Below, in pieces: positions 1 through 51,827 of a stretch of DNA of 56,710 nt. The stretch is from an uncultured virus (IMG/VR IMGVR_UViG_3300028800_002448) (lineage: Duplodnaviria; Heunggongvirae; Uroviricota; Caudoviricetes). The notes beneath the pieces are model-generated. The model saw only the letters and a list, made by a program, of their open reading frames with translations. It was not told the origin of the DNA and did not search any database. The position numbers and the translations under genes are program-made. Each line of letters starts with the position of its first letter. Position 1 is the stretch's first letter. The stretch lies in the IMG/VR virus record IMGVR_UViG_3300028800_002448. The stretch is one strand, 5' to 3'.

Positions 1-217
1 TGACGATCGGGATGGAGGTCTGGATCGACCTGCGGAGGTTCATGCCGGGCGGGACGATCGTCCTGCCGAAGCTGAGCGTTCCGTGGCCGTTCCTGCGCGA
101 CGGAAGGTTCGGCGACCATTCATGGACGTCGTTCACCTTGAGGGCGTCGATCTCGATGACGGCACCGTCTTCGACGTCGGAGGCCTGAAGATCTTGAGAG
201 GTCGTCATGGACGTCAT
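1..217 (-). CDS. Hypothetical protein (runs off window) with N-terminal DVEDG tag
   Basis: Manual translation from ATG 217 (ATGA overlap with upstream stop): MTSMTTSQDLQASDVEDGAVIEIDALK...; open to position 1. Confidence 0.7.
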   Translation of the reverse strand, partial: MTSMTTSQDLQASDVEDGAVIEIDALKVNDVHEWSPNLPSRRNGHGTLSFGRTIVPPGMNLRRSIQTSIPIV

Positions 218-582
218 CTACGGCAGGCTTCACCGTGCATGTGAAGGCAGAACTTCCTCATCGAGACGTAGCTCGATGGATCTCCGAGGGCGGAGATCAT
301 CTCGTCGGCCTTCTGCCTGACGAGCGTCTGTAGCTCTTCGACGGAGATGTTTCGGGCCTTGGGATCCGAGATGAAGACGTCTGCGTAGTAGGCGACCCAA
401 GGCGGAGGCTTGAACCTGTTCGTGTTCTCGGAGAACTCGCGCAGGCGAGAGACGACCTTCTCGACGGCTACCCTGTCGATCTTGTCCTTGCCGAGCCTGA
501 GGTTGTCGAAGGCGAGGGCAGCCTTGACGAGGTCCCAGCGCAGGTCGAAGAAGGGAGACGGAGCGCGGTTGTAGCAGAACAT
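214..582 (-). CDS. Hypothetical protein
   Basis: 122-aa ORF overlapping both neighbours in a tightly packed chain. Confidence 0.6.
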   Translation of the reverse strand: MFCYNRAPSPFFDLRWDLVKAALAFDNLRLGKDKIDRVAVEKVVSRLREFSENTNRFKPPPWVAYYADVFISDPKARNISVEELQTLVRQKADEMISALGDPSSYVSMRKFCLHMHGEACRR

Positions 583-788
583 CAGAGACGCTTTCGAGCG
601 GCGGCGATCTCATCGAGCCGCCGGGAGATGCGACCGAGAGCCTGCTGGATGTAGTTCAGCTTGATCATGTGTTCGTCATGTTCAGCCTGCCGGTGGTCAC
701 GGTCTTCCAGCTCTCGATGACGAGAGGCGACCCAGTGAACATCCACGGGCTCGTACTCGCCGACGTCTTTGAGGGTCAGGTCTTCCAT
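582..788 (-). CDS. Small coiled-coil hypothetical protein
   Basis: Internal ATG at 788 (MEDLTLKDVGEY...) overlapping the upstream stop; C-terminal heptad pattern. Confidence 0.6.
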   Translation of the reverse strand: MEDLTLKDVGEYEPVDVHWVASRHRELEDRDHRQAEHDEHMIKLNYIQQALGRISRRLDEIAAARKRL

Positions 789-1102
789 CACAAGCCGTCG
801 ATGTGCTCGATCGCGTTCATGGCGGCAGCGGCCAGCTTCACGAGATGGGCCCTCAGGTCGACGACGTCGGACGTCGCGAGGACCTGAGCCGTCGCAAGCT
901 CGATGATATGGCGATGCGTGAGGGTTTGGGCGCGGAGGTTCCTCTCGAACTCCATCTTGGCCATGGACGCCTGCTTGACGTGGATGAGCTTGCCCGTGTC
1001 GAGGGCCATGTCGACCGGGAACTGGCCCATGCAGTCTAGGACCTCCTGGAAGACCTCGACGCGATCGGTGGCTGTGGCTTCTTCTGCTTGGTGGTCGCTC
1101 AC
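788..1102 (-). CDS. Degenerate MazG-like (all-alpha NTP-PPase fold) phage protein
   Basis: GTG start with GGAGG; THRHIIELATAQVLA...DLRAHLVKLAAAAMNAIEHID resembles the TWxHILxEE...LRxELVQVAAVAxxWIE pattern. Confidence 0.45.
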   Translation of the reverse strand: MSDHQAEEATATDRVEVFQEVLDCMGQFPVDMALDTGKLIHVKQASMAKMEFERNLRAQTLTHRHIIELATAQVLATSDVVDLRAHLVKLAAAAMNAIEHIDGL

Positions 1103-1412
1103 GTGGCCTCCTGGACGATTCGAAGCTCTTTGCGCGCGAGCCTGAACTTCGATACTGCGGCGGTGATGGTCGATGCGATGGCGACGCGGGAGATCTGGTT
1201 GCATCCACAGTGGCAGTGGAGGCGCACGGACCACCACCTGCCTAGGGCGCCTATGGAGATCTTCTTCATGGGCTGAGCGGCAGGGAGGCTAGTCGTCATG
1301 TCGCATCCTCTCGATCTCGGCGCGACGGGACTCGTCGATGCAGTCGATCGCGAAGAGGACGAGCACGAGAGCAGCGAAGCCGACCCACTTGAGGATGCTC
1401 ACGGGCGCCCTC

Positions 1413-2336: not shown

Positions 2337-2369
2337 GGGAGTTGGGGACTCCTTGCAAGGGGACGGTGA

Positions 2370-3271: not shown

Positions 3272-3739
3272 TTACGCGGCGCGCTTGGGCACGCTCGGCG
3301 GCGTCGGCGTCTCGTCGGTCATGACCGGCGGGGCGGCAGGCGCGGGCGGCACGGCTGCGATGGCCTGCTTGACCGTGTAGCGGTAGAGCGTGTAGCCGGC
3401 GGCGGTGGCGGCTGTGACGACGATGGCGGCGATCCTCGTGACCCCGGCCGGAAGGAACGAGAACGACGTGTCCGTGAGCACGACGGCGATGGAGCCGCCG
3501 ATGGTCGCGATGGCTGCCCAGAAGCCGGGCGTCTTCCAGCCGGCCTTCCCGAGGGGCTCCGACGGCAGCGACGTGTGGAAGTAGGCGTACGCGGCGGCGG
3601 CGATGACGGCCGCCGCGAGAGAGACCCACTTGGCCTCGCCTGCGCTCAGCATGGGTGCGATCGAGCCGAGGACGGCGACGATGGTGACCCAGGATTCGGA
3701 CTTCGAAAGCTCGGCTTTTGGTGAGGTCGTGTCGGACAT
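3272..3739 (-). CDS. Multi-pass membrane protein, holin-like
   Basis: Four hydrophobic segments; duplicated KSESWVT.. / GWKTPGFWA.. motif like the GWKTSEFW start of small phage holins. Confidence 0.55.
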   Translation of the reverse strand: MSDTTSPKAELSKSESWVTIVAVLGSIAPMLSAGEAKWVSLAAAVIAAAAYAYFHTSLPSEPLGKAGWKTPGFWAAIATIGGSIAVVLTDTSFSFLPAGVTRIAAIVVTAATAAGYTLYRYTVKQAIAAVPPAPAAPPVMTDETPTPPSVPKRAA

Positions 3740-3765
3740 TTTGTTCTCCTACTGGTTCAAGAAGA

Positions 3766-4002
3766 TCAGTCGTCGATCGCAGTAGCGAGCGTGTCGACGT
3801 TGACGCGGATGAAGACGATCTTGTGGGGGCTTTCTGACGAGTATCGGGTCTTCTTGGGGAGAGCGATGCCGACGACGGTCGTACGGTTCTTCCAGAGGGT
3901 GAGGGGAGCACCCTCGTCGATGACGCGTGCGCCATGACCGGCGGCGGCAACGGCCGAGGCCAAGATCGCGCGACGCTGAAGACCGACGAGGGGGTTCTTC
4001 AC
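3766..4002 (-). CDS. Small hypothetical protein
   Basis: 78-aa ORF coupled to upstream gene. Confidence 0.5.
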   Translation of the reverse strand: MKNPLVGLQRRAILASAVAAAGHGARVIDEGAPLTLWKNRTTVVGIALPKKTRYSSESPHKIVFIRVNVDTLATAIDD

Positions 4003-4244
4003 AACAGCACCGAACCGCTCTGGATCGCCGTGGTGATGTCGTGGGCCAGCTTGGCCGACACCGGGCGGACGAGGTCGCGGAGGGTCGCCAGCGAGAAGCT
4101 ACGCGTGTCGGAGACGCTCCAGCCGAGGGCCTTGGCGATGCGGTCGTGCAGACCGTCTTCGTGGTGCTTGCACGCGACGGCGCTTCCCTTGGTGACGATG
4201 CAGGACGGGACGTGCTTGTGCTTTCGCTTCTTGCTGACGGCCAT
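3999..4244 (-). CDS. Small basic hypothetical protein
   Basis: 81-aa ORF, K/H-rich N-terminus. Confidence 0.65.
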   Translation of the reverse strand: MAVSKKRKHKHVPSCIVTKGSAVACKHHEDGLHDRIAKALGWSVSDTRSFSLATLRDLVRPVSAKLAHDITTAIQSGSVLL

Positions 4245-4248
4245 GGGT

Positions 4249-4479
4249 TCAGACGCCCTTCATGCTCTCTTCAGCTGCTTCGCCCATGAGGTGGGCACCG
4301 CCGATCTCGGCGCGCCAGCTGATGGGGTTCCTCTTGAAATTCATGAGGTCGCTGTCGAGCGTGTCGATGCCGCTCACCTTCGCGCGGCGTGCATGCTTCA
4401 CGTGCTTCTTCGGCTTCGGGCCGAAACGGAAGGTGTGGACGGCGTCTTCGAGGGCGTGACCGAACGTGAACATCTTCAT
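4249..4479 (-). CDS. Small basic protein starting MKMFTFGHA
   Basis: SD GAAGGA; shares N-terminus and NPISW with 4495-5028. Confidence 0.75.
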   Translation of the reverse strand: MKMFTFGHALEDAVHTFRFGPKPKKHVKHARRAKVSGIDTLDSDLMNFKRNPISWRAEIGGAHLMGEAAEESMKGV

Positions 4480-4494
4480 GGAGGTTTCCTTCTT

Positions 4495-5028
4495 CTAGAG
4501 TCGGTTCGTCCGGCGACGTCGATCGACGATATGGGCTCGTCCGAGCCCGTCGTACGCGAGGCCGATGCCGCTCGACTGGCTCTTCAGTTGCGCCGCGATG
4601 GCCTCGCCGGCAGGACCGAGCCTGACCGTGGAGGTCTGACCGTGAGCCTTGTCGTAGGCCTGCTGGGAGAGGACGCGCTTGACGTCTGCCTCGGCCGACT
4701 TCTGATGGTCGTCGCTGACCTGAGCGCGTGAGGTGCTGGCGGCTGGCGCGACATCGTCATGCGATGCGGTCTTCGTCGGCTTGGAAGACTTCTGGTTCTT
4801 GGCGGCCTTCTTCGCTTCGGCCTGCTGTTTCTGAGCGACCTTCGCGTCGTGGAGCTTCTGGTTCGCGGTCTGAAGCTGCTTCTTGGCGTCGTCGACGTCC
4901 TTCTTGGCAGCCTTCGTCGCGGGATCATCGGACGACGCGAGCCACGAGATCGGGTTCCACCACGAGCCGACGTCGAGCCGACGCGGGAGAGCGTCTGCGG
5001 TGGCGTGGCCGAAGGTGAAGATCTTCAC
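4495..5028 (-). CDS. Basic coiled-coil protein starting MKIFTFGHA
   Basis: GTG start right after the 5032 stop; K/A/Q-rich helix. Confidence 0.75.
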   Translation of the reverse strand: MKIFTFGHATADALPRRLDVGSWWNPISWLASSDDPATKAAKKDVDDAKKQLQTANQKLHDAKVAQKQQAEAKKAAKNQKSSKPTKTASHDDVAPAASTSRAQVSDDHQKSAEADVKRVLSQQAYDKAHGQTSTVRLGPAGEAIAAQLKSQSSGIGLAYDGLGRAHIVDRRRRTNRL

Positions 5029-5031
5029 GGC

Positions 5032-7896
5032 CTAGGCCGCCTTCTTCTTGCCCTTGATGGCCATGAAGAGGCCACCACCGAGGAGGAGCACGCTGCCGAG
5101 GACGGCGGGCACGTAGTTGCCGGTGTCGGGACCCGCGACGGAGGCCTGGACCTCCTGGCCGCGGATGTCCTTGAGGACGTCGGCCTTGTCCTTGCGCGCC
5201 TTGTCCTCCATCGCCTTCTTCGTCGCGGCGGCAGCGGCGACGCCTTCGAGCTGCAACTTCGCGCTCGGATCTCCGGCCTTCTGGCGATCCTTGATGTCGG
5301 CGAGCGTCGTGTGCGCCGCGGCCTTCGTGTTGGGATCGTCGCTCTCCAGGTCGTCGACGAGCGTCGCGCCGGCCTGCATGTTGTTCTTGGCGCTCTGGTC
5401 ACCCTTCTTGCTGTCGAGGATGAGCTTCGCGGCTCCGCCTGCGACGGCACCCACGCCGAGCGCGACGGCGGCACCCTTGACGAGCTTGCTCGACACGGGA
5501 GTGTCGCCCGGGTTGGCGACCTCCTCGGGCGTCGGCGGCGGCGGCGGCGGGATGTTGTCGGCGACTGGCTCGGACGAGGCCGACGTCGAGCGAGATGCCG
5601 AGCGCGGGGCAGAGCTGCGCTGAGTGACGGGCATAGGGGCAGGCACATTGGCCTGCATCGTGCGTTGGCCGGATTCGAGCGGCGGCGGGAGCGGCTCGGC
5701 GGCAGCGGCGGCAGCGCCCGGCGTGTTGACGGTGACCGTGATCGAGTTGGCTGCCGAGATGCCGGCGAGCTTCTTCTGAGCCTCGATGGCGGCGGGGCCG
5801 GGCTGCGTGGCGGCGGCCTGGAGGTCGGCGATGTGCTGTTGGGCGGCAGGATTGCCGGCGGCGGCAGCTTGTGCAGTCGCAGAGCCCTCGGCGATGGTCT
5901 TCTGAGCGTCCTTCGACGCCGATCCACCGGTCTTGGCGGTCTTGATCAGGTCGGCGGTGACGGTCGGAGGAACGCCGAGGGCGTTCGACTGATCGACGAC
6001 GATCTGAGGATGCGGGATGACGGGGACCTTGGCGACGACGGTCGGCGAGGGCGGTGCCTTGAGAGGCGGAGTCGGGCGCGCAGCGATGCGTGCGCTCGTT
6101 CCGGCGAGACGCTTCTCCTGCTCGGCGGCCATCTGCTGATGAACGTCGGTGGCGGCCTTGCCGAACTTCGCGGCGACCGTCGGGAGGCCGGCCTTGTCGG
6201 CGGCTGCCTGCGCGTCCGTCAGCTCTTTGAGCGTGACGGGCTGCTTGGTGGCGAGCTTGTGTGCGCCGTTTTCGAGGGCTTCCTTCTCGTACTTGTCGAG
6301 CTTCTTCATGCCGTCTTCGACAGCACTGCTGTCGTCGGGCGTGTAAGAGGCGAGCATCGTGCTGCGTGGAGCGGGAAGAGGCTGCTTGGGACGCGACCCG
6401 CCGGGGGGTTTGTCGCCCTGATGAGTCTTCGAGGTGGTGGCGACGGCGACGGCCGTCGTGGCAGCGGCGGCGCCAGCGGCCGGCGCGAAGGACTTGAGCT
6501 TCTGAGCGAAGGCGTCGGCGGTCTTCGTCTGGCCGCTCGATCTCGCGACCTGCTCGGCGATCTTCATGTCGGCCGGGTTGTTGCTCTTGATGCCGGCCAT
6601 GACGAGTCGCTGGCTGAAGATCTTGACGACTGGATCAGGCTTCTTCTCGACGATCGAGAGCCTGCGGGCTTCGGCGAGCTGCTTGACGGTGGCGGCGTCG
6701 CCGATCGCCAGAGTGTGCAGGAGGATGGTGTTCGTCAGGGGATAGTTGGTCCCGTGGGCAGCATGCATCTGCCCTGAGACCTGGGCTGCGACGGTGAGAT
6801 CTTTCTGCTGCGGAACGGAGCCCTTGCCGAGCTGGTCGAGGACGCTCTTGAACGTCGTCCAATCCTGCTCAGAGACGCTCTCGGGCTTGCCGGGGCTCTT
6901 GCTCTTGAGAGCGTTGTCGACGGCGTCGATCTTCGTCGTCTGTGCGACCTTGACGACGGGCGGCTTCTTGGCGGTCGCCTTGGCGGCGACGGCCGCCGTC
7001 GCGGCGATGGCGCCTGCGGGCAAGAGGGCGGCGAGGACGTCGGCCTGCTCGGTGTGGCCGTACTTCACGGCCGTCTTGTGCGCGAGGACGAGGTTCTTCT
7101 GAGGGACGTCGTGTCCGCCTCCCGTCTTGATCGCGTTGTCGACCTTGGCGTAGTTGGCGTACTCGGCGTCGGTGACGCCGTATCGGCCGGGTATGTCGAC
7201 GAGCGGACGGAGCTTGTGCATCTGCCCGAAGATCTGAGCGCGGGTCTGCGTGTCCTTCGCGCGGTTGGCGATCTCGTAGGCGAAGTTGAGCTTGCCGTAG
7301 GAGATCCCCTGAGCCTTGCCGCTCTTGACTGCGGCGACGAGCTGCTTGTAGCTGGCGGCCTGGTCGGGCGCGAGGCCGGCCGGGATCTTCACGCCGCCGG
7401 CCGCGGGCGCGGGCGACGCGTGAGAGGCGACGGCCGGCGCGGCGGGAGCGTGCTGAGCGACGCGCGGGGCTGCCGTCGTCGGCTTCTTCGCGGCGACGGT
7501 GGACGCGGCTGGCGCTGCGGGCGTCGAGGCGCCGACCTTCTGGAACTTGAGCGGCGCTTGGGAGGCGATCTGCTTCTTGCCAGACTCGGTCGAGGCCAGC
7601 ATGAGCCTGTCCGTGTCGGCATCGGTCAGCATCTTCTGCATCGCGGGCGTCGCCTTCGCCTGCACGGCGACCTTCTTCGCGTAGGCGAGCTGAGACGGCT
7701 GGATCACCCGCTTCGCCTGGATCTCGAACAGCGTGGTCGTGAGGACGCTCCAGTCCTGCTTCGTCACGCCGTCGGGCTTCCGGCTCATGGCAGCCTTCCA
7801 CTTCACCGAGGTCAAGCCGTCGATGACGGGCATGACGGCCGGCTTCTTGGCTGCGGCAGGCGTGGCGGGAGTGGAGCTGCTGGTCGAATCGGGCAT
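5032..7896 (-). CDS. Large Ala/Lys/Pro-rich repeat protein with C-terminal membrane anchor (possible virion or membrane protein)
   Basis: ATG 7896 with GAGG SD; repeated helical units; ends VPAVLGSVLLLGGGLFMAIKGKKKAA. Confidence 0.8.
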   Translation of the reverse strand: MPDSTSSSTPATPAAAKKPAVMPVIDGLTSVKWKAAMSRKPDGVTKQDWSVLTTTLFEIQAKRVIQPSQLAYAKKVAVQAKATPAMQKMLTDADTDRLMLASTESGKKQIASQAPLKFQKVGASTPAAPAASTVAAKKPTTAAPRVAQHAPAAPAVASHASPAPAAGGVKIPAGLAPDQAASYKQLVAAVKSGKAQGISYGKLNFAYEIANRAKDTQTRAQIFGQMHKLRPLVDIPGRYGVTDAEYANYAKVDNAIKTGGGHDVPQKNLVLAHKTAVKYGHTEQADVLAALLPAGAIAATAAVAAKATAKKPPVVKVAQTTKIDAVDNALKSKSPGKPESVSEQDWTTFKSVLDQLGKGSVPQQKDLTVAAQVSGQMHAAHGTNYPLTNTILLHTLAIGDAATVKQLAEARRLSIVEKKPDPVVKIFSQRLVMAGIKSNNPADMKIAEQVARSSGQTKTADAFAQKLKSFAPAAGAAAATTAVAVATTSKTHQGDKPPGGSRPKQPLPAPRSTMLASYTPDDSSAVEDGMKKLDKYEKEALENGAHKLATKQPVTLKELTDAQAAADKAGLPTVAAKFGKAATDVHQQMAAEQEKRLAGTSARIAARPTPPLKAPPSPTVVAKVPVIPHPQIVVDQSNALGVPPTVTADLIKTAKTGGSASKDAQKTIAEGSATAQAAAAGNPAAQQHIADLQAAATQPGPAAIEAQKKLAGISAANSITVTVNTPGAAAAAAEPLPPPLESGQRTMQANVPAPMPVTQRSSAPRSASRSTSASSEPVADNIPPPPPPTPEEVANPGDTPVSSKLVKGAAVALGVGAVAGGAAKLILDSKKGDQSAKNNMQAGATLVDDLESDDPNTKAAAHTTLADIKDRQKAGDPSAKLQLEGVAAAAATKKAMEDKARKDKADVLKDIRGQEVQASVAGPDTGNYVPAVLGSVLLLGGGLFMAIKGKKKAA

Positions 7897-8018: not shown

Positions 8019-8429
8019 TCAGTCCTCCCACTTCTGCTGGCGACCGCGACCGCTGCGCTCGCGACCGTCACGCCCACCACCGCCGCCGCCACGATCACCG
8101 TAGCCGCCGCCGCCACCACCGCCGTAGCCACCACCGCCACCACCGCCGCCGCCACCTCCGCCGCCACCGGTGCGAGCCGGGCGTGGGTTCGCGATGGTGA
8201 CGCGGATCGTGCGATGTCCGACCTGCGTGCCGTCGGCCGCAGCGATGATCTCTTGTGCCTTCGTGGGGGATTCGGCCTCGATGAAGCCGAAGCCCTTCGA
8301 CTGTCCGGACTCGCGATCCTTGACGACGTGGGGCCGAGACACGGTGTAGCCCATGCCGCTGAAGATCTCGGTCAGCTGCTGCTCGTCGACGGTGTAGGGA
8401 AGGTTTCCGATGTACAGGCGGTTTTCCAC
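8019..8429 (-). CDS. RRM-domain RNA-binding protein with Gly-rich tail
   Basis: RNP2 LYIGNL, RNP1 KGFGFIE, DRESGQSKG and a poly-Gly/RG tail. Confidence 0.93.
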   Translation of the reverse strand: MENRLYIGNLPYTVDEQQLTEIFSGMGYTVSRPHVVKDRESGQSKGFGFIEAESPTKAQEIIAAADGTQVGHRTIRVTIANPRPARTGGGGGGGGGGGGGGYGGGGGGGYGDRGGGGGGRDGRERSGRGRQQKWED

Positions 8430-8464: not shown

Positions 8465-8698
8465 TTACTTGCGTCTGCCGAGGAAGTGGCTGCCAAGCTC
8501 GAAGACGAAGCGTGCCGTCGAGGGCTTCTTCTCTTCCTTGGATAGCTTCTTCATCCTGTCGTGCAGATCCTTGCCGTTTTGGATCTTCTCCGTCAACACG
8601 ATGCCATGACCGATGAGGCCGTAAGCATCGTCGCGCGCGTCTTCGGCCTTCTCGACGGAGTCGGCGATGTTCCCGAGCATGTCCCAGAAGGTGCTCAT
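8465..8698 (-). CDS. Hypothetical protein
   Basis: MSTFWDMLG..., ATGA-coupled to upstream ORF. Confidence 0.6.
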   Translation of the reverse strand: MSTFWDMLGNIADSVEKAEDARDDAYGLIGHGIVLTEKIQNGKDLHDRMKKLSKEEKKPSTARFVFELGSHFLGRRK

Positions 8699-8937
8699 GG
8701 TTCGACCTCGAAGGTTGCGGAGATGATCTCTTGGTTTTCTTGGAAGGCTGATGTGCGATCGATCGGAGCAGGGTTGTAGACCCACTCGCTCCTCACGATC
8801 TCCTCGACGACCTTGCCGTCTTCGTCTTCTGAGATCTTCTTGAATTCGAACACGATTTGTTCGGGGTCGGGGCCCCTCACAATCCCACCATCGTGAACGT
8901 CTTGTACGCTCAGATCTGTCGACTCACCGGGCGTCAT
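8695..8937 (-). CDS. Hypothetical protein with N-terminal DVHDG tag
   Basis: MTPGESTDLSVQDVHDGGIV; coupled ORF. Confidence 0.7.
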   Translation of the reverse strand: MTPGESTDLSVQDVHDGGIVRGPDPEQIVFEFKKISEDEDGKVVEEIVRSEWVYNPAPIDRTSAFQENQEIISATFEVEP

Positions 8938-9512: not shown

Positions 9513-9902
9513 TCACGGGTCGAAGTCGTAATTCGAGGGAGGGTTTTCGACGCCGCATTGCCAGCAATCTTCAGGAACCTGGTGGTACTGATTGTATGCC
9601 GAGCATGATTTGCATGTGAACTGGTCGAAGCCGTCGACGACGAAGAGAGAGCCTGGCTCATAGGTTTCGTCGCCTCTCCAGACGAGGTACTCGATTTCAT
9701 CCGAAAAGATGTTTTTGAAGGGGTGAGAGATATGTGGTTGTTCGTCACCATGTCCCGAAGGGTTGATGCAGAAGACGGTCGTTGTGATCGCACCGCCTGC
9801 GCCGATGGCGTGCGTCAGCCGTTGACGACAAGGATCGATCTTCGGGCTGATGATCTGCCCGTCATGCACGTCTTGTTGGACGATGTCCGTCAGGCTGACC
9901 AT
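9513..9902 (-). CDS. Zn-ribbon hypothetical protein with N-terminal DVHDG tag
   Basis: MVSLTDIVQQDVHDGQII; CKSC...CWQC. Confidence 0.7.
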   Translation of the reverse strand: MVSLTDIVQQDVHDGQIISPKIDPCRQRLTHAIGAGGAITTTVFCINPSGHGDEQPHISHPFKNIFSDEIEYLVWRGDETYEPGSLFVVDGFDQFTCKSCSAYNQYHQVPEDCWQCGVENPPSNYDFDP

Positions 9903-10249
9903 GGATCTCCATCGGTGTCGCCCAGCTTCGCGACAAGCTCTTCCATCGTGTACTTGGCGTCATCCTGCTCTTCAAGCGAGTCGAGGTCGATGGCGTAGCT
10001 GAACGAGAAGCCGTTGTCGTCGAAGCCCCAGACGTACGACTCGTGCCTTCGCGTCTCAATGTTGTAGTAGGGGTTCGACACGTGCGCCGAATGCTCGTGA
10101 CCGAATTCGTTCTGGCACTCTATGGCCGCAAACGGCAGCCAGCGAGACGGAGCGCCAATGACGGTTGACGGAGTCTTCAAGCATAGACGTTTCGGTGTCT
10201 CACCGACGACTATCTCTTGCACGAGCGGCGCTTCGATCTCATTCAGCAT
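9890..10249 (-). CDS. Hypothetical protein
   Basis: Internal ATG MLNEIEAPLVQEIVV; fills gap between neighbours. Confidence 0.6.
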   Translation of the reverse strand: MLNEIEAPLVQEIVVGETPKRLCLKTPSTVIGAPSRWLPFAAIECQNEFGHEHSAHVSNPYYNIETRRHESYVWGFDDNGFSFSYAIDLDSLEEQDDAKYTMEELVAKLGDTDGDPWSA

Positions 10250-12778: not shown

Positions 12779-12988
12779 TCAGTTGTTGAGGTGAGGCGGA
12801 ACGTTCGAAGAGCAGACGGGACAGAAGCCGCTTTCGTCGTCGCGATGGCGCATGAACCAGCGACCGCACTTGCAGGTGCCCTCGATGAACCCGGCCTTCT
12901 TGAAGGTCTCGATCATCCGGTCCTTCTGGCGACCGTCGCCGATCTCCTCGACGGAGAGCGACCTGAGGGTTTCCTTCTTGTCGCTCAT
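12779..12988 (-). CDS. Small Zn-finger protein
   Basis: MSDKKETLRSLSVEEIGDG...CKCG...CPVC; coupled to lysozyme stop. Confidence 0.6.
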   Translation of the reverse strand: MSDKKETLRSLSVEEIGDGRQKDRMIETFKKAGFIEGTCKCGRWFMRHRDDESGFCPVCSSNVPPHLNN

Positions 12989-27418: not shown

Positions 27419-27447
27419 ATCTTCTATCTTGCTTAAGATAAAGTCAA
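27419..27447 (-). promoter_or_regulatory. Sigma70-type promoter with dyad in the spacer
   Basis: TTGACT-17-GAAGAT on minus strand; TATCTT-GCTT-AAGATA at 27425-27440. Confidence 0.72.
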
Positions 27448-30076: not shown

Positions 30077-30082
30077 CGTGCC

Positions 30083-30610: not shown

Positions 30611-30620
30611 GGTGTGATCC

Positions 30621-37423: not shown

Positions 37424-38277
37424 GGAGTCTCCTTTGAATTCTCTTGGGGGGTTTCGACGGGTGATTCTAGCGTTGTCCTCGGCTTGTTTCTATGGATACC
37501 AGCAAGGGGGATCGTGCGTGCATCGTCGACGCCGTCGTAGAAGACGCGCCTGTCCTTCACGGCTCCGAGGTCGCTGTCCTTGTGCCGGTTCGTGTACATC
37601 TTGTCGACGAAGGACGCGGTTTCCTTCTTGGTTTCCGGGGTCTTCGAGATTGCCGTCGTCTCCTGGGCAACCTTCGTCGCGACCTTGTCAGGAGGCATGA
37701 ACCGATGTTGCAGCGCGTAGACGAGGCCGCGGCGGTAGCTGTCCTCTTCGGTCTCCGTGGCCTTGTCGTACCCTCGAACCTTGACCATCTCGTTGACGGC
37801 GCTCTCGTAGTACGCGAAGAGGTAGATGATCGCGTTGATGTCCTGATTGAGGGCGATCACGCGGCCGTGCCAGAAGTCGGTCGGGCGACCGTCCTTGACC
37901 ACGACCTCGCGGATCCGGATGGCTCGCGCGTGGTAGCTCTTCGAGATCACCGTGAGCAGCGCGATCCTCCAGGCGGGTGAGAAGTCGCCGTCGACGGCAT
38001 GCTCCATGACGTCGGTGAACGCCTCGCCCCGGATCTCCGCGTCGGTGATCTTGTGCTCGGCGACGAGGTCGGCCGCCTTCTTCGTCGCGATCTTGGTCTC
38101 GTGCTCGTTGTCGCTCGCCGTCAGGGCGCGGTACTTGCGCACGCGCTCGATGACGCCCTTGCGTGCTGCCTTCTTGGTGGCCTCGTCGTCGGCACGTGCC
38201 TCGGGCTTCATTTCCGGACTGACGTCAGGGCTTACCTGAGGACTCTCCTGCGTCTTTTCTTCGACGGTGGCGTTCAT
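37420..38277 (-). CDS. DUF2786-domain protein
   Basis: VIERVRKYRALTASDNEHETKIATKKAADLVAEHKI; SYRRG. Confidence 0.7.
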   Translation of the reverse strand: MNATVEEKTQESPQVSPDVSPEMKPEARADDEATKKAARKGVIERVRKYRALTASDNEHETKIATKKAADLVAEHKITDAEIRGEAFTDVMEHAVDGDFSPAWRIALLTVISKSYHARAIRIREVVVKDGRPTDFWHGRVIALNQDINAIIYLFAYYESAVNEMVKVRGYDKATETEEDSYRRGLVYALQHRFMPPDKVATKVAQETTAISKTPETKKETASFVDKMYTNRHKDSDLGAVKDRRVFYDGVDDARTIPLAGIHRNKPRTTLESPVETPQENSKETP

Positions 38278-38687
38278 GACTTCTCCGTTGCGGTTGCGAA
38301 TGCGTGTGCGGTGAGCTGAGGCTGATCGACGCTCTCGATGTCGACGAGGTGATGATAGCCGCCGATCCAAGAGTTGCTGCTCGTCAGATCTACGTCGGGA
38401 CCTAGCTCCAACATGTGTTGGTGGTCGATGATGATCTGACCTTCATCAGTCTTCATGAATGCGGGGATGCACTTGCTGTGCAAGTAGCCATCCCACTCGG
38501 CACAGAAGTGATCGAGGTGCCCTGGCTCAGAGATGTCAGTGACGATGTCTGTCTTGGTGCAGTAGAGGCACCGATCTGTTTGACGTCGAGGAACGCCTTC
38601 GAGATCGGGATGCCCGACAGGAAGGCTGGTCGTGAGCGCAACTTGGTCGGCGCGCAAGTAGTAGATCCCACCGCAAGGCATGGGCAT
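38274..38687 (-). CDS. Zn-binding protein with C-terminal ESVDQ tag
   Basis: CLYC...EWD..LHSKC; VDIESVDQPQL. Confidence 0.7.
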   Translation of the reverse strand: MPMPCGGIYYLRADQVALTTSLPVGHPDLEGVPRRQTDRCLYCTKTDIVTDISEPGHLDHFCAEWDGYLHSKCIPAFMKTDEGQIIIDHQHMLELGPDVDLTSSNSWIGGYHHLVDIESVDQPQLTAHAFATATEKS

Positions 38688-38690: not shown

Positions 38691-39122
38691 CTATCGGAAG
38701 GTGCCGGCGAGCATCAGAGACCTGTAGGCCTTTTGGAGGGCCTCGTTGTACTCCCAGAAGGGACCCTTGAGCAGGTCCGACCATGGCCGCCAGCCGACGC
38801 GGCCCTTCTCGACGGTCGAGATCTCACCGGACCACTTCGGCACGAGGTACGTCGCCGTCAGCATCATGCGTCCGGTGTTCGGGACGACGCACTGGCCGAG
38901 AAAGAGTCTCGTGGAGTGTCGAGGGTGCATCACGAGCCCCGTCTCCTCAGCCAGCTCGCGTTTGGCTGCTGCCTTCGGGGCTTCGCCCGGCTCGACCTTG
39001 CCGCCGGGGATGCCCCATGCATGAGGGTCGTCTTTGCGGGAGACGCAGAGGACGCGCTCTTCGCCCGTGGGGGCGATGATGAGGGTGCAGGCAGCTTCGA
39101 TCTTGAACGACGGCTTGTTCAT
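38691..39122 (-). CDS. Nudix hydrolase
   Basis: Nudix box GGKVEPGEAPKAAAKRELAEETG. Confidence 0.95.
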   Translation of the reverse strand: MNKPSFKIEAACTLIIAPTGEERVLCVSRKDDPHAWGIPGGKVEPGEAPKAAAKRELAEETGLVMHPRHSTRLFLGQCVVPNTGRMMLTATYLVPKWSGEISTVEKGRVGWRPWSDLLKGPFWEYNEALQKAYRSLMLAGTFR

Positions 39123-39444
39123 GATCCTTTCTTGGCCCCCTTGTTCTCGTCGATGATGTGGACGAGCGTCCCCGAGGTCGGGCTCACGTGAAACGTCGAC
39201 CGCGAGGTGAAGACGCTTTTGTGCATCCGGCCCTTTACGGTTTTACCCCTGAGGGCAGGTGGCACGTCACCTGAGAACCCGACGGCAACCTTCTGCCCGC
39301 GGCCGAAGTGGTATCGGGCGAACCCAACAGCCCAGCGGCAGGGTTTCCTCACCTGACGAACGAACCAGCTGATGGTCATCATGACGATGTTTTCCATCTT
39401 CTCACCGAGCGCGTCGGACGTCGAGGATGGAGGAACGAGAGTGA

Positions 39445-39867
39445 TCATATCGTGTGCTCCACGATGACGAGAGGGAACAGCTGTCGAGCGACGACGTCCG
39501 GCCACTCCTTGCAGGCGTATTCGAAGGCGATCTTGGCGATCTCGAAATAGGTCTCCTTGACGGGCGTCCCGAACCCCGTGACGTAGAAGCCCGAGTTCGA
39601 AGCGCCTCGGGCGTCTCCGGAGCGATCCCACCAGACGAAGGCGAACCAGAAGTGTTCGGGACTGCCCCCGCCGGTGACGTGGACGCGACCGTCGGGCTGA
39701 TCGACGACCTTCCTGTTCTTGAGGATGGTTCCGTCGAGCCAGTTGGCAGATTCCCAGGGGAAGCCTGGGTATTTTCCTTTGACGGGTCCCCAGGTCGACA
39801 GGCCGTCCTTGTTCTGAAGGGTATGACCGCCGCTGCCGTACCCGAAGTAGAGAGCCTTCTTTTCCAT
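39445..39867 (-). CDS. Phage hypothetical protein
   Basis: LYFG...GH...WWDRSGDARGASNS motif. Confidence 0.7.
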   Translation of the reverse strand: MEKKALYFGYGSGGHTLQNKDGLSTWGPVKGKYPGFPWESANWLDGTILKNRKVVDQPDGRVHVTGGGSPEHFWFAFVWWDRSGDARGASNSGFYVTGFGTPVKETYFEIAKIAFEYACKEWPDVVARQLFPLVIVEHTI

Positions 39868-42984: not shown

Positions 42985-43404
42985 TTAACCCCTTCTGAAC
43001 TCGGTCGAATCGTGAGGCTCATGGTCGTCGTCTTCGCCGGGCATCTCCTCGCTGTGGTCGAACTCGTCATAGTCCTCGGTCAGCTCGGTGCCGGCGGCGA
43101 TGTCGAAAAGTGCATAGGAGGTCAGGGTTTCCTGGTCCCAACGGAGGTTCGGCGTCTTCGAGCTGTTCGTGAAGCGGCCAGCGTCGGCCGTGCCGTAGAT
43201 GAGGCCGTCGGGCCCCGTCCAGACGTAGATCCAGAGGAACTTGCGCAGCTCCAGCGGCAGCTGCTCGAAGGCGGAGGTCGTCAGGCGATAGTCCCTGCCG
43301 TCGGTCCATCGCGCGACGGGGGTGCCCGCGGCGATGTCCTCGGAGGCGAACAGGCCGAGACCGTGGATCTCCGACGGGCGGGCTTCGGCCCTGACCAGGA
43401 TCAT
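42985..43404 (-). CDS. SET-domain protein
   Basis: SEIHGLGLFASEDIAAG, RFTNSSKTPN (NHS variant), DIAAGTELTEDY. Confidence 0.88.
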   Translation of the reverse strand: MILVRAEARPSEIHGLGLFASEDIAAGTPVARWTDGRDYRLTTSAFEQLPLELRKFLWIYVWTGPDGLIYGTADAGRFTNSSKTPNLRWDQETLTSYALFDIAAGTELTEDYDEFDHSEEMPGEDDDHEPHDSTEFRRG

Positions 43405-43652
43405 GTTGATCCCTCGACAGGTGTCAGCCGGGGTTGGTCGACCTCTTCGATCGTGATGGAGGTGTTGCTGTGCGAGGGGCAGTAGTCTGCGAAGACCTTC
43501 GAGAGGACGTCGGAGACGGTCGTCCAGCCTGCGGCACGCGCGTCTGCTCTGATGTCTGTTGCGATCATTCTGGCCGAGAACCTATTTCTACAACGTAGGC
43601 CATCACCACCCGTCAGATCGCAGCGCAAGCTGAGCCATCTATCGTCGTGCAT
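43401..43652 (-). CDS. Small Zn-binding protein with C-terminal EEVDQ tag
   Basis: CD...C...ARAAGW...DYCPSH then ITIEEVDQPRL. Confidence 0.7.
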   Translation of the reverse strand: MHDDRWLSLRCDLTGGDGLRCRNRFSARMIATDIRADARAAGWTTVSDVLSKVFADYCPSHSNTSITIEEVDQPRLTPVEGST

Positions 43653-43657: not shown

Positions 43658-43939
43658 TTACTGTCCCGAGGTGATCTGAGGTTGGTCGACGCTCTCATAG
43701 GAGACATCGACGTCGGCGCATGTCAGAGGATTGTGTCGAGGACAGAGGTCGGAGAGGACGTCACCGTTCGGAGCGCGCTCGCAGGCCCAACCGCGACGCC
43801 TCGCTTGGCGTCTCACCTTCGAGGGAGTGTACTCAACGGTGATCTCCCATTCGGCCTTCCTGCCATCGTAGTTGTTAAGACAACCCTCGCGGTCGCACCA
43901 GACACGAAAGTTTCCGTAGCGACCGAGGCTAGCGATCAT
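43658..43939 (-). CDS. Paralogous Zn-binding protein with ESVDQ tag
   Basis: CDREGC...ARRRGW...DLCPRH then VSYESVDQPQI. Confidence 0.7.
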   Translation of the reverse strand: MIASLGRYGNFRVWCDREGCLNNYDGRKAEWEITVEYTPSKVRRQARRRGWACERAPNGDVLSDLCPRHNPLTCADVDVSYESVDQPQITSGQ

Positions 43940-46350: not shown

Positions 46351-46360
46351 ATTGAAAAGG

Positions 46361-47129: not shown

Positions 47130-47268
47130 CGGAGTCTCCTTGTCTCGGTCAGGTCATCTTCAACATCTGAACTTGGTTTCGCGCCGGCCTCGTTCGAACT
47201 CGCTGGTCCAGCCCGGGATGCCGCTACCGGCCCAGAGCTTCCAGCGGTTCCCGGGCGAGTCGAGCTTG

Positions 47269-48142
47269 TCCCTGAAGGGATTTCGGGACGGACAACCACC
47301 CCTGCCACCCCCGCCGACTGCGTCGGCGCCCTCATACTCGTCCTCGCTCTGCCGGCGCTCCATCGCGTGGTCGAGATGGATGGTGCGCGTGGCGGGGCAG
47401 CGACAACATTCCTGGAGGACGTGGCCGTCCTTGACGACCATCCAGATGGCGCCTGTCTTCCTGTGCCAGCAATGGGCAGAGGAGCAGCAATGGCCGTCCT
47501 CCTTGCCGGCCGCGAGCCGCTGCTCGAACAGCTTCTTGTCGTGGGTGCTCATGTGCTTCCTTTCACCTTGTTGGTCTTGCAGGGGATGCAGTGGTCGCCG
47601 CACGTCTGCCTGCGGGCTTCGATGTACTTCGCGTGCTTCTCCGGATCCTGGTCCGTGTCGAGGATGGAGTTCTCGACGAGCTTCTTCAGGAAGTGGATGA
47701 CGGTGTCGGCGCCCATGCTTTCGGTGTCGACGAAGGTCCGACCCTCCTCGTCGGTGATGATCGTGATCTCACCGAAGCCGAAGCTCTTCTCGGAGAAGTT
47801 GAAGATGGCGACGACCCGTTCGGGCATGCGCACCGTCGTGTCGACGTTGGGCGGCACCGTCTTGGCGAAGCCGAGGTAGACGTGCGTCGGCGCGTCGTCG
47901 AGAATCGACTGGAACTTCTCCTCTTTTTCCGTCTCGTTCATCCTCGTGCGCCCCACCTCTTCTGAGCTGCCATCTTCGCGATCTCGGACCGCCTCTTCGG
48001 CGAGAGCGCTTCCGCCCTCGCCGGCCCACCCTTCAAGCCCCCAGCCCGTCCCATGATGGCTGCCATCGTAGAGAGGCTCATCCCTGAAGGGACTTCGGGC
48101 CTGCCAACCCACCCAGCCACCCCCGCCGAATTCGTCGGCCCC
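47269..48142. repeat. 62-bp duplicated element (47269-47330 and 48081-48142)
   Basis: Ungapped manual alignment, 52/62 identical, offset 812 bp. Confidence 0.85.
47549..47941 (-). CDS. Hypothetical protein
   Basis: ATG 47941 coupled; FSEKSFGFGEI...DTESM. Confidence 0.65.
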   Translation of the reverse strand: MNETEKEEKFQSILDDAPTHVYLGFAKTVPPNVDTTVRMPERVVAIFNFSEKSFGFGEITIITDEEGRTFVDTESMGADTVIHFLKKLVENSILDTDQDPEKHAKYIEARRQTCGDHCIPCKTNKVKGST

Positions 48143-48228
48143 GTCGTCGGCGCGATCTCAGGCTCGAAGAGCTTTGAGATGATCGCGCGCGATTGAACGT
48201 GCCTGTCCTTGTGTTGCATGACGCTCAA
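47938..48228 (-). CDS. Small basic protein with GGLKGG..RA..LS..RR.EIA..AA..RW motif
   Basis: MGRAGGLKGGPARAEALSPKRRSEIAKMAAQKRW; start uncertain. Confidence 0.75.
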   Translation of the reverse strand: MSVMQHKDRHVQSRAIISKLFEPEIAPTTGPTNSAGVAGWVGRPEVPSGMSLSTMAAIMGRAGGLKGGPARAEALSPKRRSEIAKMAAQKRWGARG

Positions 48229-48252: not shown

Positions 48253-48723
48253 TCAAGTCTCGTCGTCGGACAGGTCGCGTCGTTCCAGTTCGATCGAAAC
48301 GTCTTCCGAGACGTCATCCGAAACGTTTTCGGCCGCCATCTGCTGCCGGCGTCGGCTCATCTCGGCCCAGTCGTAGTTCTGAGCACTGCCATCGTCCCAC
48401 TCGTGACCCTTCGTCTTGGTGGTCGGCAAGACCACGAGACCGATGGAGGTGTGCTTGTGGAACACGAGGTAGAACTGCTCGTCCGTGTCGCTGCTGAAGA
48501 CGTCGAAGCGACCGTCGTCGGACGGAATGACGGGCAGGCGCGACCACGGTAAGACATAGCCTTGGATCTCCGACGACCAGTCAGCATCGAACGACAAGTC
48601 TCGAAGCGCTACGGCTCCGGCATCGCGTCTGAAACGCACCAGGACGGGAGGTCGTACCTCTTCGGAGATCTCCTTGACGTCCGTGACGACGAGGTCTGCC
48701 CTCTTGGCGATCTCATCGGCCAT
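48253..48723 (-). CDS. Hypothetical protein with N-terminal tag
   Basis: ADLVVTDVKEIS; acidic tail. Confidence 0.65.
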   Translation of the reverse strand: MADEIAKRADLVVTDVKEISEEVRPPVLVRFRRDAGAVALRDLSFDADWSSEIQGYVLPWSRLPVIPSDDGRFDVFSSDTDEQFYLVFHKHTSIGLVVLPTTKTKGHEWDDGSAQNYDWAEMSRRRQQMAAENVSDDVSEDVSIELERRDLSDDET

Positions 48724-48854
48724 GGGACACGCTCAGGAGGTTCCTCGCCTGATCGCAGTAGGTGTTCAAAAGGCCCGCGAGGATCAACAAGACCCCGATG
48801 ACGATCGCGCCACGCCTGAGCGCCTTCATCTCTCGCGTGGTCATGTTGGTCGTG

Positions 48855-48939
48855 TCCTGCCGGAGGGAGTCGAACCCTCACACCCACCAGGGGCTGCCGA
48901 TTTTAAGTCAGCCGCGTCTACCAATTCCACCACGGCAGG
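48855..48939 (-). tRNA. tRNA-Leu(TAA)
   Basis: CCTGCCG/CGGCAGG-A, GCTGA-CT-TAA-AA-TCGGC, long variable arm, TTCGACT. Confidence 0.92.
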
Positions 48940-48943
48940 GTTG

Positions 48944-49030
48944 TGGGAACGGGGGGAGTCGAACCCCCATGGGCACTAAGGCCCCACAAGGTTTGAGCTT
49001 GTGTCGTCTACCAAATTCCGTCACGTTCCC
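48944..49030 (-). tRNA. tRNA-Leu(CAA)
   Basis: GGGAACG/CGTTCCC-A, ACAAG-CT-CAA-AC-CTTGT, long variable arm. Confidence 0.92.
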
Positions 49031-49061
49031 GGAGGCCGAAGAGGATAGCACAAGTCTCCGG

Positions 49062-49256: not shown

Positions 49257-49681
49257 GGCTCCAGCCTCTTCTGGATCTCCATGCGCACGCGCTGTAGCTC
49301 GTCGTCGGGACGGTAGGGCGTCTCCCAGCAGACGATCTCAATCCAGCGGCTGCGGTCCTCGGGACGGATCCAATACTCGTCGTCGTCGACGATCAGGCAC
49401 TCGTCCGGCGCGGCGTACTCGATGTGCTCCAGGCTCTTGTAGCGGCCCTGCCAGGTGACGATCGGCATCGTGCCCGTCTGCACGGGAGCATCACCGATAT
49501 CGACGAGCGTATGGAGCACGTCACGCGCCTCGTCGGTCTCGACGGCCGTGAAAAGCTCGACGCGTGGGAACGTCGTGAAGGCCCACCCTAGGAAGTCGAA
49601 GAGGCCCTTGCGAGGCATCTGGCTCATGGCGTTGCTGACGAGCGTGCCTTCGAGATCGATGGCCAGGACCTTGGGCTTCAT
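49253..49681 (-). CDS. HAD-superfamily (NIF-like) hydrolase
   Basis: VLAIDLEGTL, LFTA, KSL, LIVDDD. Confidence 0.82.
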   Translation of the reverse strand: MKPKVLAIDLEGTLVSNAMSQMPRKGLFDFLGWAFTTFPRVELFTAVETDEARDVLHTLVDIGDAPVQTGTMPIVTWQGRYKSLEHIEYAAPDECLIVDDDEYWIRPEDRSRWIEIVCWETPYRPDDELQRVRMEIQKRLEP

Positions 49682-50133
49682 TCATTTCTCCAGATGTTTC
49701 TCCAGACGGATACGTCAAAGGCGACATCAACCAGAGTGCCGCCACCGAGAGAGTAGGTGTCAACCCAGTAGGAGATGCATTCTACAGTTGCTCGAAGGTC
49801 CTCGGAAACGTTCAGCGATGGGACGATCTTGATGGGGTTGGTGACCAAAGCCAACGAGTCGGCATTGCCACTCACTTCGACATGCGTATCGAAATAGTTG
49901 TCAAACCACCACTTGGAGACGTCATAGAACAAGAGACGAACGGAGCCTCTTCTTTCACGCCTGACCCACAGCTTGGAGCCGTTCGAATACAATATTGAAT
50001 GCGGAGTTCCGAAGGGGATGTGAGCGCTGATCATCAGATGCCGATCTGGATTCTTGACGTGTTCGTCCTCAATGATCGCACCGTCTTCGACGTCCGACGC
50101 GACGATTGATGCTTCCTCTTTCATGCTGTTCAC
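49678..50133 (-). CDS. Hypothetical protein with N-terminal DVEDG tag
   Basis: SIVASDVEDGAII; body visibly lower GC. Confidence 0.7.
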   Translation of the reverse strand: MNSMKEEASIVASDVEDGAIIEDEHVKNPDRHLMISAHIPFGTPHSILYSNGSKLWVRRERRGSVRLLFYDVSKWWFDNYFDTHVEVSGNADSLALVTNPIKIVPSLNVSEDLRATVECISYWVDTYSLGGGTLVDVAFDVSVWRNIWRNE

Positions 50134-50696
50134 ATCTTGCCCGAGATGTGAACGACCGCGTCGGCGTCGATGGGCTGGCCTTTGTCCATCGTCACGAAGG
50201 TGAAGGTCTTCACGTACACGATCCGACCGACTCGCTCGTCCGTCGTCGTCTCATGGATGTATGGGCAGGAGAGGGAAGCGTGAACGCCGGAGAGATCTTC
50301 GCCTATGGCCCAAACCTTGATGGTGCCCGTCGTGCCGCGCTCGACTTCGATCTGCACGCCGTTGCCGTGATGCCAGACCTTGCGCTGGAAGTTGACAGGT
50401 ATGTGAAGCTTGACGACGGAAGGCATGACGTCGGTCTTCTGGTAGAGTCTCTTGTACTTGGAGTGGTCGGCAAGCTCCGTCTCGTAGACGTAGCCAGCTT
50501 TCGGCACCCAAGACGTCTCGTTGAGCATCAGGAAGAACGACATCTCCCACGCCCTGCGTCCCTCGTCGTCCACCTCCCAGTCATCGGCCCGCAAGATCTT
50601 CCTGGTCTCCAGCTCCTCGAAGATGTCGCCCTGCGAGACGTGCCAGATGTCGATGACGACCCCGTCCTCGACGTCGCTCGCGACGAGATCGCTCAT
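50130..50696 (-). CDS. Hypothetical protein with N-terminal DVEDG tag
   Basis: MSDLVASDVEDGVVI. Confidence 0.72.
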   Translation of the reverse strand: MSDLVASDVEDGVVIDIWHVSQGDIFEELETRKILRADDWEVDDEGRRAWEMSFFLMLNETSWVPKAGYVYETELADHSKYKRLYQKTDVMPSVVKLHIPVNFQRKVWHHGNGVQIEVERGTTGTIKVWAIGEDLSGVHASLSCPYIHETTTDERVGRIVYVKTFTFVTMDKGQPIDADAVVHISGKM

Positions 50697-50940
50697 TTTG
50701 CCCTGTAGAGGAAAGTGAACAGACGAGGATTGAGCAGACTTGAGTCAGGGACTGTTCCGTCGGGCACGGGACCGTCCGGGCCGAGCCATATGAGGTACCT
50801 CCAGCCGGAGCTGTCCGATATGCTCGTGGCCTCGACATTGTTGCCGTTCGCCTGGTCGAAGAAGACGTCTCCCTCCTCCATGGTGTTCTTCGGAGGTCGG
50901 ATGTCTGCGATCTCCTCGGCCTGCTGACGAGTGAGAGAAC

Positions 50941-51411
50941 TCATTCCTGAGGCCGTATGGGGCCCGTGAACCAAATAGACGCGGTCCTTGGAACCTTGAG
51001 GACGTCCTCGATGGAACGACGGGTCGAGTCGTAGACGTTGACGACGACGTCATTGAAGGAGCCGACGAGGAAGTGGAAGAACGGCTTGCCATGCATCGAA
51101 TGGATTTCCCTCAGGCTGGGGAAGTGAAGCGTCGGGTGTCGCTCTTCAAGGCGGGAGGCGTATCGGGCGGTGATGCCCATGTTCTCCCTGTCGAGATCCT
51201 CACCCAACAGGTGTACCTCCGTCACGCCGGGCGTGGTCGTCCTCCACATCTGCATCGAGATCCTCCGGCGATCCGAGTTGAACTCGGCGAAAGGCTTCAT
51301 GAGCATGAAGCGTCCGGACAGCAGGAGGCCGTCTTCGATCTGCGGGAACTCAGGGATGAAGACCTCCTCCGAGTCGGCGACGACCAGGCTTTGTTCGGAA
51401 GCGGCCTTCAT
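50941..51411 (-). CDS. Hypothetical protein with N-terminal tag variant
   Basis: QSLVVADSEEVF. Confidence 0.65.
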   Translation of the reverse strand: MKAASEQSLVVADSEEVFIPEFPQIEDGLLLSGRFMLMKPFAEFNSDRRRISMQMWRTTTPGVTEVHLLGEDLDRENMGITARYASRLEERHPTLHFPSLREIHSMHGKPFFHFLVGSFNDVVVNVYDSTRRSIEDVLKVPRTASIWFTGPIRPQE

Positions 51412-51827
51412 CCGGGCACGTAGATGTTGAGCGTCATGGCGACGTGTTCGTAGTGTGGAGTGCCACCATGACGCCTGAAGACTCCGACCTTCTGCACACG
51501 ATGATGATCGTCGACATAGGTCGGACGCTGGACCTCGTCAATACCCCAAAAACCCTGATCCCAATCGCCAACCTCAGGCTGATAGGACACCTTGATCTGA
51601 TCGAGCCTGAGACCGTAACTCCGCGTCTCGACGATGCCCCCGGCGACCCTGTGAAACTCCAAAGTGAAGTCGAGGGCTTCATGAGGATTGATGACGACGT
51701 GCTCCTTCTCGACGCCCAGGAAGAATGAGTGGGCAAGCACCCATCCTTTGGGAAGGCGGATCTCCAGAACCTCCTCGACATCGTGCTCGACGAGAGCGTT
51801 CACCGCGACCTCGGAACTTTCGTCCAC
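51408..51827 (-). CDS. Hypothetical protein with N-terminal tag
   Basis: NALVEHDVEEVLEI. Confidence 0.65.
   Translation of the reverse strand: MDESSEVAVNALVEHDVEEVLEIRLPKGWVLAHSFFLGVEKEHVVINPHEALDFTLEFHRVAGGIVETRSYGLRLDQIKVSYQPEVGDWDQGFWGIDEVQRPTYVDDHHRVQKVGVFRRHGGTPHYEHVAMTLNIYVPG

Follow-up and report, generated by a model that had tools for sequence, protein, structure and literature searches.

In phage T4, internal proteins of divergent sequence carry propeptides of 10–19 residues, the capsid targeting sequences (CTSs), which bind to the core and are removed by cleavage behind L/I-X-E. An Asp at the cleavage site prevents this processing without abolishing targeting, and T4-related substitutes for the internal proteins are described as basic (PMC9026906). 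The CTS carriers named in two accounts are IPI, IPII, IPIII, and Alt (PMC9026906, PMC7411985). In the second of these, the SPN3US gp245 propeptides, cut by the prohead protease at A-X-E, are proposed as targeting signals (PMC7411985). Here, we analysed a 56,710-nt stretch of DNA from an uncultured giant soil phage of the Caudoviricetes (IMG/VR record IMGVR_UViG_3300028800_002448; the whole stretch is hereafter called the window), in which approximately one in ten proteins (12–13 of 126) begin with a shared acidic peptide, the N-terminal tag. The tag was confirmed as real, with 12 or 13 open reading frames (ORFs) carrying it convincingly, and it is probably a portable arm by which the proteins dock to a single partner.

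The window had a G+C content of 61.6% and densely packed genes. The database records of its proteins sit on a phage contig of 260,842 bp; thus, the window, to which all tag counts refer, represents approximately one fifth of a jumbo-sized genome. An automatic gene caller predicted 125 genes, of which the starts of 8937, 24279, and 20974 were moved by hand, and ORF 49678–50133 was added, giving 126 genes (single numbers denote ORF starts). The tag motif reads [DSEA]-[LI]-x3-[DE]-V-x-[DE], followed by G-x-[VI]-I (class A) or [VI]-x-x-I (class B), and its core ends between residues 11 and 18. A first-pass annotation, made from the sequence alone, had placed a similar pattern at N-termini, and this placement held: inside the first 15 residues the pattern matched 9 of 1,890 positions, whereas none of the 14,649 positions further along gave a match (Fisher p = 3e-9), and a relaxed pattern gave 17 N-terminal and 0 internal matches among the 126 genes. 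Because both the strict and the relaxed patterns were post hoc, a motif-free test was run on the untouched automatic starts. It detected 25 similarity triangles among the N-termini of 112 genes of at least 60 aa; the highest count reached by any of 200 internal controls was 4, and by any of 200 shuffles 3. An expectation-maximization motif search overfitted and gave no separation from its controls. The tagged ORFs, together with the weak candidates, were as follows:

1–217, minus strand: class A ORF truncated at the edge of the window (148 aa in full, P0003); tag at 155–190; viral beta-sandwich body.
582–788, minus strand: ORF of 68 aa; weak B-like tag at 744–779; not above background.
8695–8937, minus strand: class A ORF, 80 aa; tag at 8878–8913.
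9513–9902, minus strand: class A ORF, 129 aa, Cys/His-rich; tag at 9849–9884; body like that of the untagged neighbour 9890–10249.
12779–12988, minus strand: Zn-ribbon-like ORF, 69 aa; weak tag at 12923–12958; not above background.
21916–22233, plus strand: very acidic ORF, 105 aa; weak B-like tag at 21928–21963; not above background.
22230–22673, plus strand: class B ORF, 147 aa; tag at 22242–22277.
22666–23085, plus strand: class A ORF, 139 aa; tag at 22675–22710.
23082–23384, plus strand: class B ORF, 100 aa, Cys-rich; tag at 23094–23129.
24279–24581, plus strand: borderline class B ORF, 100 aa; tag at 24291–24326.
26423–26626, minus strand: doubtful ORF, 67 aa; A-like start at 26585–26620; the sole member without upstream-stop overlap.
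48253–48723, minus strand: class B ORF, 156 aa; tag at 48658–48693; near two tRNA-Leu genes; body variable between strains.
49678–50133, minus strand: class A ORF, 151 aa; tag at 50071–50106.
50130–50696, minus strand: class A ORF, 188 aa; tag at 50652–50687; SH3/Tudor-like barrel at residues ~17–85 and beta-sandwich at ~100–188.
50693–50944, minus strand: class B ORF, 83 aa, newly found; tag at 50900–50935.
50941–51411, minus strand: class B ORF, 156 aa; tag at 51352–51387.
51408–51803, minus strand: class B ORF, 131 aa; tag at 51759–51794; start 51803 chosen over 51827.

Each tag site was scored in a leave-one-out manner against 14,145 internal peptide windows. All six class A sites (217, 8937, 9902, 22666, 50133, and 50696) and the class B sites of 22230, 23082, 48723, and 51803 outscored every internal peptide window, while 50944 and 51411 were equalled by 1 and 3, respectively. 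ORF 24279 was borderline (equalled by 15 with the class B model and 1 with the joint model), and 26626, with its A-like start, was a doubtful extra member. All 15 peptides quoted in the first-pass annotation were present at the starts of their ORFs, where for 51827 the start at 51803 is preferred since it overlaps the upstream stop. As members, its six class A ORFs and 22230, 23082, 48723, 51803, and 51411 were retained, whereas 788, 12988, and 21916 were at background level. ORF 50944, which it had missed, completes an unbroken run of five tagged genes (51803 to 49678), and the clustering of tagged genes that it had reported was reproduced (7 adjacent tagged pairs, p = 0.0014). Its treatment of classes A and B as separate labels was not supported: the class A model ranked class B sites over untagged N-termini (p = 1e-5) and the class B model did the same for class A sites (p = 9e-9), which indicates one motif with two endings.

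None of the tagged N-terminal ORFs scanned scored above the cut-off in Pfam, PHROGs, or NCBIfam, and no cultured-phage match was found for the 217 protein, 21916, or 50944. Searches with the tag profile retrieved proteins of the window and close relatives of these, as well as long repeat proteins (P0005 and P0011–P0013); the last were taken as chance matches, P0005 being the only one inspected. Scans of viral contigs for relatives yielded no relative (four matches from one scan were unrelated), and the class A pattern had no match in genome contigs. The literature search found no description of the motif, with most subscription papers lying outside it.

The tag is conserved as a peptide, not as DNA. 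The Ser codons TCC, TCA, TCG, and AGC, from which peptide-level selection had originally been proposed, were as reported, and the proposal was backed by codon identity: pairs of tags with the same residue shared the codon in 272 of 502 cases, against 280 expected from codon usage. Synonymous positions thus showed none of the conservation of a DNA repeat or recombination site, and the information by codon position in the tag was 0.68, 1.07, and 0.33 bits, lowest at the third. Four homologues on other contigs kept 11, 7, 9, and 11 of the 12 tag residues, approximately the level of their bodies, and the residues ahead of the tag varied (1 of 8 kept in P0010). Near-identical DNA was present in four sequencing runs, labelled peat, rhizosphere, and soil, with one unlabelled. 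Of the strain differences, 31 were mapped to genes among 40 listed of 57, some on thin contigs; two of these 31 lay inside tags, and both were synonymous. Among the differences listed, ORF 48723 had 10 replacements and 7 silent changes, and the tagged run of five between 49678 and 51803 had 3 and 7, respectively. A Shine-Dalgarno-like 4-mer occurred inside 10 of 16 tags, but a start codon followed within 7 codons in only 1 of the 10, and an internal start behind the tag was therefore rejected. An antisense class A core was also found at 39411–39434 (plus strand), opposite the start of ORF 39119–39448 and within a 31-codon open frame; its 7-residue core arose in 0 of 400 codon shuffles, and this copy may be what is left of a tagged gene start that was inverted.

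Folding covered two members, 50696 and 217. The 50696 model was built from a three-sequence alignment (mean pLDDT 69), with residues 1–17 below pLDDT 50 and the first strand at 25–28. Its barrel, matching the SH3/KOW/Tudor-like barrels of CarD, VapX, DUF1653, and the UvrD Tudor domain, began at approximately residue 17–19 and was followed by a beta-sandwich. The best barrel match had Z 6.9 and rmsd 2.2 over 58 aligned residues, where Z <8 may mean a common arrangement only; most matches began at residues 16–21 and small Atlas matches mostly at 15–17, and a viral fold search found nothing at E 0.001. The full-length 217 protein matched unnamed, mostly viral clusters over residues 42–148 only (TM 0.62–0.65), and its AlphaFold model was poor (pLDDT 32), so that the corresponding fold search serves as a hint only. 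The 217 body matched beta-sandwich modules, so that no barrel fold was common to the two members folded, and in 50696 the tag was not a core strand of the barrel, as judged from the three-sequence model. Together, the barrel behind the tag in 50696 and the beta-sandwich in 217 indicate that the tag is not simply a shared barrel strand. The first-pass annotation had itself named this possibility, together with class B showing no N-terminal enrichment, as a refutation of its view; the check did not refute it, since class B was enriched and the 50696 tag preceded its SH3/Tudor-like barrel.

The profiles of 50696 and 217 matched each other around the tag only, and among 136 pairs of bodies the best p values (0.007–0.02) were not significant after correction. 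Cys-rich, helical, and acidic bodies also bore the tag, and no sequence match to a solved structure had an E value under 0.9. ORFs 50696, 51411, 50133, and 22666 gave weak hints of a shared beta-sandwich (E 0.06–0.56) and may be distant relatives. ORF 9890–10249, a homologue of the tagged 9902 body (E 3e-4), scored only 2.3 on the tag model. The earlier view of a portable, peptide-level tag on unlike bodies was therefore supported; with two members folded, unrelatedness is shown for these two and is likely for the rest.

The tagged proteins were 67–188 residues long and soluble, with acidic bodies; a membrane-like segment occurred in none of the 23 proteins bearing this tag or the C-terminal tag described below, compared with 15 of 103 others. 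Tagged genes typically began at the stop codon of the gene upstream, with an overlap of up to 14 bases (16 of 17, versus 40 of the 101 others with their starts as called and 46 of 101 with any in-frame start permitted, p = 1e-4 for the latter; 8 genes without a same-strand upstream neighbour were left out). The genes upstream of tagged ones were often untagged and unrelated, such as those of an endolysin and a glycosylase, which suggests that tagged genes were inserted into operons with coupled translation. Genes for tRNA-Ala (26632–26705) and tRNA-Leu (48854–48939 and 48943–49030) lay on the minus strand directly upstream of 26626 and 48723, respectively. An A+T-rich repeat that contains an imperfect palindrome and a spacer of constant length (12 bases) was found in six copies, each ahead of a gene (13905, 15510, and 19399 on the plus strand; 42573, 44433, and 45239 on the minus strand), with weaker copies at 27422–27443 and 54843. 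This promoter-like repeat is probably a phage early promoter or operator; a metagenome scan with it returned 5 loci, all unrelated.

Seven other ORFs carried a companion motif, [IVYF]E[SE]V[DE]Q, 11–21 residues before the C-terminus, and the motif-free test gave 11 similarity triangles among C-termini versus 4 in controls. The C-terminal tags were located as follows:

21238–21264, plus strand: in ORF 20974–21300.
21879–21905, plus strand: in ORF 21567–21923.
35162–35188, minus strand: in ORF 35144–35701, which has two cultured-phage homologues without the tag.
38313–38339, minus strand: in ORF 38274–38687.
43425–43451, minus strand: in the ORF ending at 43401.
43673–43699, minus strand: in ORF 43658–43939.
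56009–56035, plus strand: in ORF 55754–56044.

Grafting was shown directly for the C-terminal tag, since neither cultured-phage homologue of 35144–35701 carries it: the Arthrobacter phage homologue ends where the window protein gains a linker and the tag, and the Caulobacter phage homologue also lacks it. For the N-terminally tagged proteins, no distant homologues were found. Unlike in the N-terminal tag, Ser in the C-terminal tag was AGC in all six copies, and codon identity was 96 versus 83 expected (p = 0.08). The earlier observation that no ORF carries both tags was reproduced (0 of 23), but the mutual exclusion read into it was not supported: by a hand calculation from 16, 7, and 126, approximately 0.9 such ORFs are expected and zero has a chance of ~0.38. 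The routing, cleavage, or destination suggested for the tagged proteins likewise found no support.

Loading into or onto the virus particle, in the manner of the T4 CTS, is the likeliest single mechanism, although we advance it only tentatively. The arm stands ahead of small, soluble domains that are probably unrelated, and a single partner probably binds all arms, presumably by adding the terminal strand of the arm to the edge of a sheet. Under particle loading, this reader would be an assembly protein of the virus that brings the accessory proteins to the particle, either inside or on its surface; class B could then be cleaved behind its Glu, and class A, which has Asp at that place, would remain whole. 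The Asp and Glu endings would fit uncut class A and cut class B because Asp in T4 blocks cutting and not targeting. Genes would acquire the arm and slot in on the stop codon of a neighbour, leading to coupled and probably low expression.

Several observations weigh against particle loading. No tag among the 16 fits the strict L/I-X-E rule (6 fit with Val, and 7 end in Asp), and the offset of the tag is variable, ranging between residues 4 and 11. The tagged bodies are acidic (median pI 5.2 versus 8.0; 11 of 16 below pI 6; p = 0.001 for charge), whereas the T4-type cargo is described as basic. A Shine-Dalgarno-like site precedes 5 of 17 tagged genes versus 63 of 109 others, and the run 21916–24581 lies downstream of a promoter-like repeat, both of which are odd for abundant virion cargo. 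The scanned proteins of the window, which holds approximately one fifth of the genome, included no recognisable head protein, gp21-like prohead protease, or core protein. Some matches to 50696 begin at residues 2–12, three of the Atlas matches (rows 2, 5, and 8) at 2–3, and in the poor 217 model the tag strand falls inside the weak beta-sandwich matches; the tag strand of 217 may pack on its own body or merely favour sheet edges.

The tag could instead mimic the acidic C-terminal tail of host DnaK and dock proteins on a host factor reading that tail, for example a co-chaperone or protease adaptor, in the infected cell, which we regard as unlikely. The DnaK tail binds J-domain proteins, a point on which no paper was found. 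The conserved C-terminal motif of bacterial DnaK, DDVVDAEFEEVKD (PMC7918210), scored 10.3 bits on the class B model, a value reached by 1 of 14,397 internal peptide windows and within the range of true members (5.6–18.4), and 6.9 on the C-terminal tag model, reached by 0.02%. The comparison was, however, chosen for its likeness, so that the score is post hoc, and the published bacterial motif may not be that of the host. The solubility of the cargo and the position of several tagged genes behind promoter-like repeats are consistent with mimicry, whereas the different ending of class A and the N-terminal location of the phage tag, as opposed to the C-terminal DnaK motif, argue against it.

Similarly improbable is a structural strand inherited in a few diverged paralogue families, either as an SH3/KOW-like first strand or as an extra sandwich strand, for which no common partner is needed. 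Class A resembles the usual start of SH3/KOW domains, and several bodies continue similarly; the weak similarities among 50696, 51411, 50133, and 22666, the early Atlas matches, and the placement of the 217 tag strand point in the same direction. Against this, the 50696 barrel has its own first strand past a low-confidence tag, the 217 body is a beta-sandwich and not SH3-like, the profiles of these two match around the tag only, no pair of bodies is significantly similar, and the tag also occurs on Cys-rich, helical, and acidic bodies.

A recognition signal or degron for the phage AAA+ ATPase at 16840–18552 (plus strand, 570 aa), which would unfold, turn over, or load the tagged proteins, is quite improbable. 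No other large ATPase was recognised in the window (Pfam AAA, E 7e-16 for this one), it lies upstream of the 21916–24581 run on the same strand, and its closest cultured matches are in the Bacillus jumbo phages AR9/PBS1 (33%); however, its role as reader is argued from proximity, and approximately four fifths of the genome lie outside the window, where other readers may be encoded. The ATPase also has a weak match to the model of the anti-phage ATPase IteA. A DNA-level element (a cassette joint, a binding site, or a relic ribosome-binding region) of which the peptide is a by-product is largely refuted and has very little probability left: the upstream-stop starts, the antisense core at 39411, and the Shine-Dalgarno-like 4-mers within tags would suit it, but codon identity is as expected, third positions are the least informative, and a start codon rarely follows the 4-mer.

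The host is probably, on weak sequence grounds, a member of Myxococcota. A Myxococcales genome gave the best of the 80 matches listed for the uracil-DNA glycosylase (55%), with Acidobacteriota level, and the FHA protein had its top score on a myxobacterial GltG, below the cut-off. A broader proposal, which we consider doubtful, is a two-ended address system in which the N- and C-terminal acidic strand motifs, similar to the DnaK tail and grafted onto small domains of recent acquisition, would route nearly a fifth of the window proteins to one viral or host machine in a host that is probably of Myxococcota, with tagged genes plugging into operons on the stop codon of a neighbour and with a sequence unlike that of T4.

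Other annotated genes in the window encoded a GH25 endolysin, a papain-like peptidase, HNH nucleases, a thymidylate kinase, and the AAA ATPase, and three tRNA genes were present. The region 3272–7896 (minus strand) held a block of Ala/Pro/Lys-rich proteins and membrane proteins that lack annotation, one of them 954 aa long with a hydrophobic segment at its C-terminus; ORFs 4249–4479 and 4495–5028 have their first 14 residues in common, a possible third, basic N-terminal tag. At 28392–31835 (minus strand), two paralogues (mutual E 2e-44) that look like methyltransferases by eye, but were not named by the family scan, lie on either side of an unknown protein of 318 aa and follow another, which is beta-rich and 404 aa long; this region is possibly a glycan-modifying module. 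A 70-base direct repeat (81% identity, 812 bases apart) occupied 47264–47333 and 48076–48145. Host-like accessory genes on the minus strand encoded an RRM protein with a Gly-rich tail (8019–8429), a SET-domain protein (42985–43404), and a lone FHA protein (52455–52787).

The small genes of giant phages are mostly without known function. The N-terminal tag groups 12–13 of the 126 genes and the C-terminal tag seven more, for which one pull-down could assign the partner. If the tag copies the DnaK tail, it would represent a new way of borrowing host chaperones; the likeness lies in the scores on the class B and C-terminal tag models, whereas the DnaK tail sits at the C-terminus of one host protein and class A ends differently. 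SH3/KOW/Tudor barrels share with the tag a resemblance of class A to their first strand, and 50696 holds such a barrel, but it starts after the tag, and the 217 body is of another kind. The giant-phage head propeptides are similar in having short Glu-ended motifs near termini, and 2 of the 16 tags read A-E-E; those of SPN3US differ in that they span 111–130 residues on abundant head proteins (PMC7411985), compared with a tag of approximately 12 residues on proteins of 67–188 aa, and in being cut by a prohead protease, of which none was seen in the part of the window's proteins that was scanned.

For unlike phage proteins with a common N-terminal address, T4 is the known precedent; the present motif matched no family searched. 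As in the T4 CTS, a short N-terminal peptide, within the 10–19-aa range, is common to small proteins with divergent bodies in a large phage, and an acidic residue stands two places past a mostly hydrophobic residue. The variable offset, the acidic cargo, and the lack of a ribosome-binding site in most genes differ from T4. Given the absence of any fit to the strict rule, the acidic cargo, and the scarce ribosome-binding sites, the tag works like a CTS at most and was not classed as one. If it does load cargo into particles, it would constitute a second, sequence-distinct solution to the capsid targeting of T4 and a possible handle for delivery.

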